Positions 22,619 through 25,453 of a stretch of DNA of 64,000 bases are shown here, one piece after another. Within the stretch, counting starts at the first letter, position 1. Each line of letters starts with the position of its first letter. A program made the position numbers and the translations under genes. The stretch is from Candidatus Moraniibacteriota bacterium (GTDB lineage Bacteria > Patescibacteriota > Minisyncoccia > Moranbacterales > UBA1568), in contig CAVURJ010000001.1 of assembly GCA_963743885.1 (NCBI GenBank), positions 140,949 to 204,948 of the forward strand. The letters run 5' to 3'. The notes beneath the pieces are model-generated. The model was given only the letters and a program-made list of their open reading frames with translations. It made no database searches and had not been told where the DNA came from.

Positions 22619-22658
22619 GCTTTAGCTCATCCTGGTTTTTTGGTTGGTATTTTTGTTT

Positions 22659-22694
22659 TCCTCCTCCACTGCCAAGGGGAGGGTAGGGAGGGGT
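22659..22694. repeat. Hairpin repeat, left flank of DUF559 gene
   Basis: cctcctccactgccaaggggagggtagggagggg; inverted/near-identical partner at 23053-23087. Confidence 0.6.
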
Positions 22695-22700
22695 TATGAT

Positions 22701-23051
22701 ATGTACCGGATATTCAATAAAAAAGATACGACTGAATTCCGAAGGAAGCTTCGGAAAGAATCTACACCGCAAGAGATAATCCTCTGGTCGCGATTGCGGA
22801 GAAAAGCTCTTGGATATAAATTCCGTCGCCAGCAGGCTATAGACGGATATATCGTTGATTTTTTCTGCTCAGAAAGGAATCTCATCATAGAATTGGATGG
22901 GTGGCAGCACAAGGAATCGGTGAAGCATGATGAAAAGCGGACGGAGTATCTCAATGGTCTCGGTATGAGGGTTTTGCGTTTTTGGAATAATGAAGTCAAT
23001 GATGACTTGGAAGGGGTGGTGTTGAAGATTGAGGAGAGCCTGAAGAATTGA
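22701..23051 (+). CDS. DUF559 (Vsr-like endonuclease fold) domain protein, low-GC
   Basis: ESTPQEIILWSRLR...GYKFRRQQAIDGYIVDFFC...LIIELDGWQH; ~43% GC. Confidence 0.65.
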   Translation: MYRIFNKKDTTEFRRKLRKESTPQEIILWSRLRRKALGYKFRRQQAIDGYIVDFFCSERNLIIELDGWQHKESVKHDEKRTEYLNGLGMRVLRFWNNEVNDDLEGVVLKIEESLKN

Positions 23052-23148: not shown

Positions 23149-23418
23149 CTACTTTGTTGCTGCCTTCTTTACGAGGGCGTTCAAGCGGGACTTCTTGCGG
23201 GCAGCGGTGTTCTTCTTGATCACCTTCTTCTGCGCGGCCTTGTCGAGAGCCTTGATGGCCTTCTTGAGAGTCTCCTGCGCCTCGTCTACCTTGCCGGCAG
23301 CGATGGCTTCGCGAGTCTTCTTGACGGCGCTCTTCACGACACCGTTCACGACTTTGTTGCGGAGCGTGTTCTTGGCGGTGACGCGCATGTACTTCCTGGC
23401 GGCTTTCTTAATCGGCAT
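23149..23418 (-). CDS. rpsT: 30S ribosomal protein S20
   Basis: MPIKKAARKYMRVTAKNTLRNKV... Lys/Ala-rich 89 aa. Confidence 0.9.
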   Translation of the reverse strand: MPIKKAARKYMRVTAKNTLRNKVVNGVVKSAVKKTREAIAAGKVDEAQETLKKAIKALDKAAQKKVIKKNTAARKKSRLNALVKKAATK

Positions 23419-23563
23419 AGTAGCTATATCAAAATTAAAATATCAAAACGAAAAACTGATAAAACAAGGAACCTGAGACCTATTCTTTCTATCATGGTCC
23501 GAGTGTTTTGGCAAGAGTACGGCATTTTTTCGACTTTGTATATCAGGGGTATGTTATTGAAAT

Positions 23564-23612
23564 TACCGGGAATCCTGGTATATTTGACAAGTACCGGGAA
23601 TCCCGGTAAAAT
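23564..23612 (+). promoter_or_regulatory. Sigma70-type promoter (TTGACA-17-TAAAAT) with two copies of the 17-bp palindrome TACCGGGAATCCCGGTA; -10 abuts start codon
   Basis: taccgggaatcctggta (23564-23580), ttgaca (23584-23589), taccgggaatcccggta (23592-23608), taaaat (23607-23612). Confidence 0.6.
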
Positions 23613-23618
23613 ATGGTC

Positions 23619-24584
23619 ATGAAGATATCCATACCAAATAGCGCGTTTCTTGGCAATATTAACCCTTTTTTGAGGGGTTTTGACCCTAAGAATAAGGAAA
23701 TTTTTGAGATAGCAGCGAACGAGAAATGGATATCTGTCCATCCTGTCGCGCTGGCTATGATTGCCGCTATTGGGCTACCACTCAAGGCGAATGAGGTGTT
23801 CTTCGATAGGCTGACGGCGAAATCGGGGCACTATCTCGAAAGGATGGGATTATTCAAGTTTCTCGGGATCGATTCTGGGATAAAGATCAATGAGCATGAG
23901 CCGGCAGGAAGATTCATCCCGCTGACGCAGATAAACAATTCCGATGAGCTTTCAAAATTCGTAACGGACATCATCCCGTTGCTCCATCTCAATCCGCTCC
24001 AGACCGATGCACTCCGTTATGTCATCAGCGAACTCGTGAGGAATGTCATCGAGCATGCTGATTCCCCAATCGGAGCAATCGTCGCTGCTCAGTATTATCC
24101 GGATAACACTATACGGATCGGCATTGCCGATACCGGAGTAGGGATACGGTCTACCATCAGCAAGGCGCATCCGGCGAAAACCGATATTGATGCGATCAGG
24201 CTCGCTCTGACACCAGGGATAACCGGTACGACGAGCCGGGAAGGAGGCACGGAATCCAATGCCGGTGCCGGTCTGTTCTTTATAAAATCCATATCAAAGG
24301 TGAGTAGGGAATTCTTCATGATATACAGCGGCGACGCCATGTACAAGCTTCTCAAGGAGCCGCTCCGGGCGAAGAGACCAATAAGGCTTTTCGCGGATCC
24401 GTTCAATGATAGGTATACAGCCGAAGAAGGTTTGCCGGTCTGGCAAGGGACGGTTGTCGGGGTGGATATATCGCTTGATGACACGCAAGAATTCTCGGAC
24501 CTTTTAGATCTTATCAGGGACGTGTATGCGAAAACAGTGAGAGAACGGAGACGTGAAAAATATAAGAAACCGAAATTCATATGA
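23619..24584 (+). CDS. GHKL/histidine-kinase-like ATPase domain protein (low-GC), probable leaderless start
   Basis: ALRYVISELVRNVIEHADSP ... IGIADTGVGI ... GAGLFFIKSIS (N, G1, G2 boxes); alternative ATG at 23613. Confidence 0.6.
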   Translation: MKISIPNSAFLGNINPFLRGFDPKNKEIFEIAANEKWISVHPVALAMIAAIGLPLKANEVFFDRLTAKSGHYLERMGLFKFLGIDSGIKINEHEPAGRFIPLTQINNSDELSKFVTDIIPLLHLNPLQTDALRYVISELVRNVIEHADSPIGAIVAAQYYPDNTIRIGIADTGVGIRSTISKAHPAKTDIDAIRLALTPGITGTTSREGGTESNAGAGLFFIKSISKVSREFFMIYSGDAMYKLLKEPLRAKRPIRLFADPFNDRYTAEEGLPVWQGTVVGVDISLDDTQEFSDLLDLIRDVYAKTVRERRREKYKKPKFI

Positions 24585-24871
24585 TTATCGTAGAATTATT
24601 CGGGAAAACGGGAGCGTTCGCCGAAAACAAGGATATCGCGCGGGATATCCGGGTGCATACCATATTGCCGGCCCTCGATAAGGGTGAGGATATTATCCTT
24701 GACTTCAGTGGTGTCACCTCGGCGACACAATCGTTTGTCCATGCTATGATCAGTGATGCTCTTCGGAAACACGGAGACGTTGCTCTTGAGAGAATCTCGT
24801 TCAAATCCTGTAATGATGTTGTGCGGAAGATAATCGGCATAGTGGTTGATTATATGCAGGAGAGCAATTGA
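24581..24871 (+). CDS. STAS-like (DUF4325-like) small protein, translationally coupled to GHKL ATPase
   Basis: 96 aa; ATGA start/stop overlap with upstream gene. Confidence 0.5.
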   Translation: MIIVELFGKTGAFAENKDIARDIRVHTILPALDKGEDIILDFSGVTSATQSFVHAMISDALRKHGDVALERISFKSCNDVVRKIIGIVVDYMQESN

Positions 24872-24883
24872 TTAATATCGCTT

Positions 24884-25453
24884 ATGATAGGAAGATTGGA
24901 AGGAAAAATCGCCGGAATCCGCGGAAATGCCGCTATCGTCATGGTTGGAGGCGTGGGCTATCTCGTGGCTGCGTCTGCCTATACGCTCGGCAAGATCGCC
25001 GGAGAGAGCGAAGTGTCACTCCATATCCATACGCATGTACGAGAGGACCAGCTGGCGCTTTATGGCTTCTTGTCCGAGGAGGAGCTTTCTATGTTTGAGC
25101 TTCTCATCTCTATCTCCGGCATTGGGCCGAAGGTCGCGCTTTCTATTCTCTCTATCGCTGATCCCAAGACTATCCGCACTGCAATCGTGAACAAGGATCC
25201 GTCCATCCTGACGCGCGTGTCGGGGGTCGGCAAGAAGACGGCCGAGCGCGTCATCGTGGAGCTTCAGAACAAGGTGGATGCGATCGGCATCGAAGACCAG
25301 GGGACAGCACTGGCTGGCCAGGACGCTATCGAAGCGCTGGTCTCGCTCGGCTACTCTGTCACAGAGTCCCGCGAAGCGCTCAAGCAGGTGCCGGCCGATA
25401 TCACGGATGTCAGCACGCGTATCCGCCAGGCTTTGAAAAATCTGGGGAAGTAG
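24884..25453 (+). CDS. ruvA: Holliday junction DNA helicase RuvA
   Basis: MIGRLEGKIAGIRGNAAIVMVGGVGYLV ... HhH motifs GIGPKVAL / GVGKKTAERV. Confidence 0.9.
   Translation: MIGRLEGKIAGIRGNAAIVMVGGVGYLVAASAYTLGKIAGESEVSLHIHTHVREDQLALYGFLSEEELSMFELLISISGIGPKVALSILSIADPKTIRTAIVNKDPSILTRVSGVGKKTAERVIVELQNKVDAIGIEDQGTALAGQDAIEALVSLGYSVTESREALKQVPADITDVSTRIRQALKNLGK

Follow-up and report, generated by a model that had tools for sequence, protein, structure and literature searches.

What kind of regulatory unit is built from two overlapping genes behind a promoter that carries a repeated palindrome, and which of its products reads that palindrome? These questions are raised by positions 23,564 to 24,871 of a 64,000-nucleotide (nt) stretch of a Candidatus Moraniibacteriota genome (contig CAVURJ010000001.1), which at its full length we call the window. 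The two genes, here named K and S, encode a GHKL-type protein and a single-domain STAS-like protein. We consider it fairly probable that they form a self-contained, horizontally mobile and autoregulated kinase-STAS switch, the minimal stand-alone form of the CapK/CapS-VapK/VapS superfamily. A bolder proposal, which we hold tentatively and at slightly short of an even chance, is that a GHKL kinase has been turned into a sequence-specific repressor through a tripeptide code in one of its loops, giving a portable sensor-switch with a STAS substrate that regulates itself in both bacteria and archaea, its operator serving sigma-70 promoters in the former and TATA/BRE promoters in the latter. The features on which the argument draws are listed below, with the K residue numbers of the N-box, G1 box and loop following the 323-residue reading of the gene.

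23564 to 23580, plus strand: operator O1, TACCGGGAATCCTGGTA, with one mismatch, directly 5′ of the −35 hexamer; the position is also occupied in bacterial homologs
23584 to 23589, plus strand: −35 hexamer TTGACA, inside the 11-bp spacer separating the operator arms
23592 to 23608, plus strand: operator O2, TACCGGGAATCCCGGTA, a perfect palindrome in the promoter spacer with a 2-nt overlap with the −10 hexamer
23607 to 23612, plus strand: −10 hexamer TAAAAT
23619 to 24584, plus strand: gene K, 321 aa, CapK/VapK-like, predicted to be leaderless with its start codon the probable transcription start
24030 to 24044, plus strand: GHKL N-box of K, E140-x-x-x-N144, motif SELVRNVIEH (compare CapK SELIGNVRDH)
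24129 to 24143, plus strand: G1 box of K, D173-T-G-V-G177, with D173, G175 and G177 invariant
24354 to 24386, plus strand: basic loop of K, K248-R258 (KEPLRAKRPIR), a candidate DNA-reading element
24486 to 24581, plus strand: C-terminal helix and basic tail of K (…VRERRREKYKKPKFI), not in CapK and kept across the wider family
24581 to 24871, plus strand: gene S, 96 aa, single-domain STAS-like (DUF4325), coupled to K translation through an ATGA overlap
24725 to 24733, plus strand: codons T49-Q50-S51 of S, at the N-terminus of STAS helix alpha2

Relationship of K and S to known kinase-STAS systems

CapK, which has a helix-turn-helix (HTH)-STAS-GHKL architecture, is a kinase activated by single-stranded DNA (ssDNA) that phosphorylates the repressor CapS, a STAS-winged HTH (wHTH) protein, on Ser54; in VapK/VapS/VapC the phosphorylated STAS antitoxin releases a PIN toxin (Chambers et al., EMBO J 2026, PMC13373217). 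Both systems respond to DNA damage and serve in phage defence, and both were described in 2026, in bacteria only and with an attached output, either a wHTH or a PIN toxin (PMC13373217). We took the CapK, CapS and VapK sequences from the supplementary files of that paper and used hhalign to compare a profile of 68 K sequences with the two kinases. The profile matched VapK with a probability of 98.7% and E 2.2e-16 (residues 3-284 to 13-286, 253 columns) and CapK with a probability of 98.0% and E 1.8e-13 (residues 25-289 to 86-366). K is thus homologous to CapK and VapK over its full length but does not have the HTH of CapK. Its N-box and G-boxes are intact. Against Pfam, K matched HATPase_c_2 at 7.5e-6 and 26.4 bits, under the cut-off of 27.4, HATPase_c was also sub-threshold and no HTH family was found. 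S matched DUF4325 at 4e-13, and its structural model (predicted local distance difference test (pLDDT) score 96) folds like RsbS and SLC26 STAS domains. The GHKL and STAS assignments of the original prediction are thus supported by Pfam annotation, by the folds and by the alignments to CapK and VapK. Residues T49, Q50, S51 and F52 of S are invariant across the family alignment and S51-F52 stands opposite the CapS phospho-acceptor S54-F55; the S profile also matches the VapS structure 9z7o (‘Escherichia VapS’, E 0.0099). When the N-terminal domain of K was compared with S by hhalign, no relationship was found.

K-S resembles CapK/CapS in several respects. K is homologous over the middle ‘STAS’ domain and the GHKL domain, with local correspondences such as HYLERMGLF to NYLNRLGFF and the N-box motifs listed above; K precedes S; the invariant Ser-Phe of S falls on CapS S54-F55; and a palindromic operator lies at the unit’s own promoter, where it overlaps the −10 hexamer. 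However, K has no N-terminal HTH, aligning from CapK residue 86 on, and S has no operator-binding C-terminal wHTH and therefore cannot repress in the CapS way. The operator here is located 5′ of K and not between K and S, and its consensus is TACCGGGAWTCCCGGTA rather than TTAA half-sites. CapK has no counterpart of the inserted basic loop or of the C-terminal basic helix of K, ruvA rather than an immune operon lies directly downstream in the window, and the module is found in archaea too.

With VapKSC the pair shares the two-domain STAS-GHKL architecture of VapK, an S protein that resembles the STAS domain of VapS, and the form of a stand-alone operon without a tie to a downstream pathway. It differs in lacking the PIN toxin VapC, and no third gene is shared among 80 loci. 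S (96 aa) ends at the last STAS helix, so that it has neither the CapS wHTH nor the C-terminal tail of VapS (116 aa) with its inhibitory helix. The basic loop, an insertion of 10-17 residues relative to CapK and VapK, counts 17 residues when VapK is the reference, and the C-terminal helix is a further addition. A GHKL Ser kinase adjacent to, and translationally coupled with, a single-domain STAS substrate is also the plan of SpoIIAB/SpoIIAA and RsbW/RsbV, and K has weak sequence and fold matches to SpoIIAB. K-S differs in its reversed gene order, in the double length of K and in the lack of a linked PP2C phosphatase. Archaea have no sigma factors, and since the cassette is resident there its target cannot be a sigma factor; no sigma gene was linked to K-S at the 80 loci. 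DNA may instead take the place of the sigma factor as the other partner of K. A further relative is a long DrmA variant of DISARM (PADLOC model PDLC02567), which carries K and S, in unchanged order, as a fusion ahead of a defence helicase: model positions 47-249 match K (3.6e-20) and 311-390 match S (4e-5). Unlike DISARM, the window proteins match only positions 47-390 of 1750 and have no helicase, drmB, drmC or methylase nearby. K and S are also fused, in the same order and with ‘SSSF’ at the acceptor position, in two proteins of 400-417 aa (P0503 and P0510).

Judged by these sequence comparisons, the K-S pair is a member of the CapK/CapS-VapK/VapS superfamily that fails the defining features of each described system. 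In the searchable literature we found no description of the stand-alone K-S form, of an operator shared across domains or of a DNA-reading kinase loop.

The cassette is widespread. K gave 3085 matches in a 90%-clustered collection, of which the best 120 are 63-83% identical and carry the labels Patescibacteria, Moranbacteria, Woesearchaeota, Nanoarchaeota, Actinomycetota and Elusimicrobiota; clustering at 50% yields 115 clusters at E ≤1e-30 and 1135 at ≤1e-10. A K copy is present in 430 of 185,579 species genomes, and the cassette also occurs in thousands of metagenomic copies, concentrated in candidate phyla radiation (CPR) bacteria and DPANN archaea. Homologs that have the same palindrome, 61-83% identical, come from CPR bacteria, Elusimicrobiota, DPANN archaea and Thermoplasmatota. 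S adjoins K in 68 of 71 loci, with a 4-nt ATGA overlap in 62 of those 68; the overlap claimed for the window copy is present at 24581-24584. All-against-all clustering of 1566 neighbouring open reading frames (ORFs) from the 80 loci revealed no third conserved gene: only K and S are common, and the other recurrent clusters are antisense shadow ORFs. Copies this similar across bacterial and archaeal phyla, in unrelated neighbourhoods, support the horizontal acquisition that had been proposed from base composition. The GC content of the module is indeed below that of its context, although the values of 45% against 57% given at the time did not hold: we measured 48.2% for the module and 53.8% for the window, so that the module ranks at the 3.8th percentile among segments of its length.

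A sister subfamily, B, shares 46% identity with K and was first found in three viral contigs (L081 6001-7250, IMGVR_UViG_3300008474_000007, and also L082 and L083). There the K-S cassette, which has its own promoter, occupies a typical moron position in a Saccharimonas-type phage, with the head genes (portal, protease/major head) on one side and the tape-measure gene on the other; the cluster representative of the phage copy is labelled Candidatus Saccharimonas, and PHROG 3364, listed as of unknown function, is this K family. In other subfamily-B loci (L084-L086, L113, L118 and L124-L134) S is repeatedly followed, with an overlap or at most 13 nt away, by the gene for a Type I restriction R subunit or an N6/N4 DNA methylase, echoing the restriction-modification association reported for capK/capS (PMC13373217). 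AbiEii, Fic and integrase genes are also among the subfamily-B neighbours. A role in stress or defence, as first suggested for the window copy, is made plausible by sister copies beside restriction-modification genes and in phage and by relatives that are responsive to DNA damage and protect against phages (PMC13373217). The K-S fusions, the N-terminal K-S module of DrmA and the subfamily-B neighbours likewise hint at a conflict-related role.

This context bears most directly on the alternative that survives best, namely that K-S is a toxin-antitoxin or abortive-infection module in which K is the toxin, perhaps a kinase or ATPase with a universal target, S a pseudo-substrate antitoxin, and autorepression sets their levels. 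Like type II toxin-antitoxin systems, K-S consists of two small overlapping genes with palindromic operators over their own promoter and apparent autorepression, and it is mobile, patchy in bacteria and archaea and carried by phages and plasmids. Its relative VapKSC is a toxin-antitoxin defence system (PMC13373217), subfamily B keeps company with Type I HsdR, N6/N4 methylase, AbiEii, Fic and integrase genes and includes the phage moron, and K and S make up the N-terminal fusion of the PADLOC DrmA model. Yet neither protein has a known toxin fold or a recognisable effector domain, the larger and putatively active protein is encoded first, and PADLOC gave no direct system match, only the N-terminal part of that one DrmA model. 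Sequence conservation is far higher than usual for such modules, with a cross-domain identity of 61-83% that is unusual for toxin-antitoxin or defence genes, and the window copy, between rpsT and ruvA, is outside any defence island. We therefore regard a toxin-antitoxin function as possible but rather doubtful. It is compatible with an autoregulated kinase-STAS switch and would supply the output that such a switch is missing.

An operator shared by bacterial and archaeal promoters

The promoter of the window copy has a 17-nt spacer and agrees with the consensus at 11 of 12 positions, and two copies of the operator consensus flank its −35 hexamer and reach into its −10 hexamer. O2 is built of 8-bp arms around a central A. 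It had been described as filling the 17-bp spacer; it does lie in the spacer, but it starts 2 nt after the −35 hexamer and overlaps the −10 hexamer by 2 nt, and this junction (..CCCGGTAWAAT) is kept in bacterial loci. The one-mismatch copy placed immediately 5′ of the −35 hexamer is present as O1. The palindrome has 4 strand-matches in the window against 0.09 expected by chance, none of 100 shuffles had as many, and no further copy with up to 3 mismatches is present in the 64 kb. An Rfam scan returned only a spurious microRNA hairpin (E 0.44) and no known RNA.

Read from ATG 23613, the K ORF is longer, at 323 aa. Because every homolog begins MKIxxPNSAF, however, the true start is ATG 23619, which lies 6 nt 3′ of the −10 hexamer, the modal spacing among bacterial relatives. 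At this distance the K-S mRNA is most likely leaderless, so that the corrected start strengthens the earlier suggestion of a leaderless transcript.

We carried out a census of the operator in 62 loci with a defined K start, accepting the palindrome at up to 2 mismatches and counting sites in the 200 bp upstream of K. The palindrome is kept at the same promoter positions in 58 of these loci, in support of the repressor-operator layout that had been recognised in the window. Within 200 bp 5′ of K there are 81 sites, compared with 3 in the remaining 573 kb, and two of the 3 stray sites are orphan copies of the same promoter region without K. These orphans, at L007 5640-5720 (339 bp 5′ of the real promoter) and L020 6900-6990 (2.6 kb 3′ of the module), may have been left behind by duplication or by the loss of cassettes.

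Assigning loci to bacteria or archaea by the domain named in the record title, we found that promoter type splits perfectly by domain. Bacterial loci have one site just 5′ of the −35 hexamer and one in the spacer reaching into the −10 hexamer; with a strict pattern, −35/−10 hexamers are found in 29 of 35 and a TATA box in none. Archaeal loci, where the cassette is 61-68% identical, have a TATA box in 27 of 27. The full palindrome is present in 26 of these 27, with the TATA box ~10 nt 3′ of it, and the distance from TATA box to ATG is 29-32 nt in 21 loci. Beside the ATG there is a proximal half-site, ATTCCCGGTA, in 19 of 27 and a full palindrome in only one. Since the operator is common to bacteria and archaea, a host regulator cannot account for it and the operator-binding protein must be encoded by the cassette itself.

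Other subfamilies have different operators at the same positions: L179 carries TACCTGGATTCCAGGTA plus matching half-sites, and L178 carries GCGAGCCTA-N21-TAGGCTCGC. No comparable operator was found in the distant subfamilies L175 and L176 or in the plasmid homologs L091-L093. One of the latter, L092 79-1748 on the Alicyclobacillus acidocaldarius plasmid pAACI02, is a distant K-S pair (25% identity) that follows a small ‘sigma factor-like HTH’ gene, and in this three-gene variant DNA binding may fall to a separate protein.

The window holds one further element in this region:

23557 to 23584, plus strand: a second promoter-like site, weaker than the main one and TG-extended (TTGAAA, 16 nt, TATATT), that encloses O1 between its hexamers

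In combination with the main promoter, this site can be read as a ~28-bp tandem duplication of promoter plus operator. It is not seen in the closest relatives, such as L001, and may be a chance occurrence.

Which product reads the operator

The operator of subfamily B has the same geometry and a different repeat, with two 17-bp inverted arms around the −35 hexamer, for example ACACCCGTAGAGTGCTT-ATTGACAACA-AAGCACTCTACGGGTAAGAT. The outer 9 bp of the arms are conserved, whereas the inner 7 bp vary by locus yet stay complementary: 87.7% of cells are paired, compared with 31-48% when the partner is slid, and 64 cells show double changes against 29.7 ± 5.1 in shuffles. Four loci of this group (L103, L108, L114 and L119) have an addition ~90 nt 5′ of K and directly 5′ of the left arm, either a third arm or a second, tandem copy of the right arm and −10 hexamer. 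The extra arms give alternating arm orientations.

We took advantage of this variation in a scan of 38 non-identical subfamily-B loci, sorted into the inner-arm classes CGT, TGC and TAC, in which every column of K and S was scored for adjusted mutual information (AMI) with arm class. The classes correspond to K residues 249-251 as follows.

Arm class CGT: residue 249 is D in 17 of 17 loci; tripeptide 249-251 D-K/R-R
Arm class TGC: residue 249 is K in 10 of 11 loci; tripeptide 249-251 K-K-R
Arm class TAC: residue 249 is R in 10 of 10 loci; tripeptide 249-251 R-S/T-D

The one TGC locus that departs from this pattern has a variant arm. AMI is 0.96, 0.69 and 0.53 for K residues 249, 251 and 250, respectively, and 0.47 for the next best K column; the best S column reaches 0.37. 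Residue 249 is the first residue of the basic loop after a conserved ‘TLLK[HY]’ motif. On a tree of subfamily-B K proteins built without the loop the arm classes are polyphyletic, parsimony gives 7-8 class switches with an equal number at residue 249, and none of 5000 permutations reproduced the match between residue and class; L100 and L152, nearest neighbours at 87% identity, share neither class nor tripeptide. A distance of ~750 bp separates the operator from the loop codons and the residues in between do not track class, which makes block recombination unlikely. Co-variation of tripeptide and arm is the signature of protein-DNA specificity, and it thus points to K, and not S, as the operator reader. 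From sequence co-variation, K is probably the autorepressor. CapK and VapK, in which the loop is missing, depend on other domains for their output.

The same scan bears on the alternative in which S, or only the K-S complex, is the DNA-binding repressor, in parallel with CapS. CapS, the STAS protein of the characterised relative, is indeed a repressor (PMC13373217). S is conserved as strongly as K, at 70% mean column identity, and in many type II toxin-antitoxin systems it is the complex that binds the operator. However, S is a bare 96-aa STAS domain without a wHTH, it is acidic, with an isoelectric point (pI) of 5.5 compared with 10.9 for the basic loop of the window K, and no S column tracks operator class in the way that K residue 249 does. 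We consider repression by S or by the complex alone unlikely.

Could the inverted repeat instead act as a DNA structure, a 17-18-bp hairpin or cruciform with the −35 hexamer in its loop that responds, for example, to supercoiling or strand exposure? The arms in the window (23563-23580 and 23592-23609) could fold at −15.2 kcal/mol with a z-score of −5.3, the subfamily-B arms co-vary in the paired cells and double changes given above, and the related kinases sense ssDNA (PMC13373217). Against this, archaeal loci keep the sequence without the second arm, the outer 9 bp of the subfamily-B arms are conserved as sequence and not for pairing alone, and the K tripeptide tracks the inner-arm sequence, a match that a pure structure does not need. 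A purely structural role is accordingly improbable.

The AlphaFold model of K (pLDDT 70.5, predicted template modelling score 0.81) consists of an alpha/beta domain (residues 1-120), a Bergerat-fold GHKL kinase domain into which the basic loop is inserted, and a long C-terminal helix with a basic tail; the loop (residues 249-262) sits between two long strands and is of low confidence, with pLDDT below 50. Foldseek matched the model to Topo VI-B (the best match in the PDB, E 6.4e-4), SpoIIAB and histidine kinases. The Topo VI-B match, the E-x-x-x-N motif and the apparent DNA binding of K, as suggested by the co-variation, would suit a protein of the MORC or Topo VI-B type, acting as an ATPase or an ATP-driven DNA clamp, for which S is a regulator instead of a substrate. 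Yet K has full-length homology to CapK, for which Ser kinase activity is experimental (PMC13373217). The model also matches SpoIIAB with a Foldseek probability of 1.00, a target TM-score of 0.64 and E 5e-3 (the sequence match to SpoIIAB 1l0o is weak, E 0.059), and S has its invariant Ser at the acceptor position. There is thus little chance that K is such a clamp rather than a protein kinase.

The weakest alternative, a host-encoded regulator that binds the palindrome within a wider regulon, would fit the classic operator layout and the original prediction of a separate cognate regulator with a genome-wide regulon, but we rejected it as very improbable. The operator is particular to the module: the window contains no other copy, and 573 kb of homolog flanks contain 3 strays, two of them orphan promoter copies. 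It is kept in bacteria and archaea, which share no such regulator, and has no conserved gene beside it.

Neighbours, proposed circuit and meaning

The module lies between rpsT (minus strand, 23149-23418) and a DNA-repair gene:

24884 to 25453, plus strand: ruvA, 12 nt 3′ of S (context only)

No terminator-like site is present between S and ruvA (24872-24884), and K-S also stands directly before ruvA in L002, the closest relative. In this genome ruvA may therefore be co-transcribed with the module, and, as a DNA-repair gene behind a homolog of a DNA-damage-sensing kinase pair, it may be regulated by that pair. Control of the adjacent gene is not a general property. Downstream genes at 142 loci are co-directional in 99 and convergent in 43 (30%), and the co-directional ones are heterogeneous (RuvA, LigA, FtsK, HisRS, Type I HsdR, N6/N4 methylases), for which reason we rejected K-S as a general controller of its neighbour; local control is possible, of ruvA here and of restriction-modification genes in subfamily B. 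Two other features of the window lie farther upstream. A 135-aa ORF at 22644-23051, two genes 5′ of the module, matches Pfam DUF559 / MTES_1575, a Vsr-like endonuclease domain, and the segment 18250-19500 is also low in GC (42-47% compared with ~55% around it), with a strong positive GC skew.

We propose the following circuit. The sequences show a strong promoter for a bicistronic and most likely leaderless mRNA of K and S. Operator sites owned by the cassette cover this promoter, the core elements of which follow the host domain. K would read the operator through the basic loop inserted in its GHKL domain, as the co-variation suggests, perhaps assisted by the C-terminal basic helix, and a K oligomer over the −35 and −10 hexamers (in archaea over the B recognition element (BRE), TATA box and transcription start) would shut off synthesis of K and S. 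By homology to CapK/CapS and SpoIIAB/SpoIIAA, K would also bind S and phosphorylate it on Ser51, alternating between S and DNA such that a signal that alters the kinase de-represses the cassette. For CapK and VapK this signal is ssDNA from DNA damage or infection (PMC13373217). In the window, de-repression would also drive read-through into ruvA. The most likely candidate for an output beyond self-regulation is an action of K on a universal target or on DNA, perhaps with defence or toxin-antitoxin-type behaviour. The options for a host benefit are thus a toxin-antitoxin or abortive-infection role of K, local control of downstream genes, or a function on DNA.

Several observations weigh against this autoregulated kinase-STAS switch or parts of it. 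DNA binding by K is derived from co-variation in the sister subfamily. In subfamily A, to which the window copy belongs, neither the length nor the sequence of the loop is constant while the operator hardly varies; a search for a loop code in subfamily A revealed none, and the loop may not read bases there. It may provide backbone contacts only, with base reading elsewhere in K. The confidence of the K model is moderate overall and falls below a pLDDT of 50 in the very loop in question. The S-to-CapS alignment is by itself not significant (E 0.19). The column of VapK F54, the ssDNA-stacking residue, is a non-aromatic Ser in K, with an invariant Trp39 two residues off, so that ssDNA is at most a candidate trigger for K. 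Finally, the heterogeneous and partly convergent downstream genes deny K-S a general hold on its neighbours, and a circuit with itself as its one known target has no evident benefit, so that the model lacks part of the system.

The locus thus raises the question of what a host gains from a kinase-substrate pair that seemingly controls only itself. Little is known of how CPR bacteria and DPANN archaea regulate and defend themselves, and in K-S the bare core of the CapK/CapS-VapKSC family is widespread. The cassette is also a natural experiment in the cross-domain transfer of a whole regulatory unit, in which the operator has been kept and the core promoter re-fitted to the host. If confirmed, the loop-operator code would be a new mode of DNA reading for the GHKL superfamily and would provide a small orthogonal set of repressor-operator pairs.

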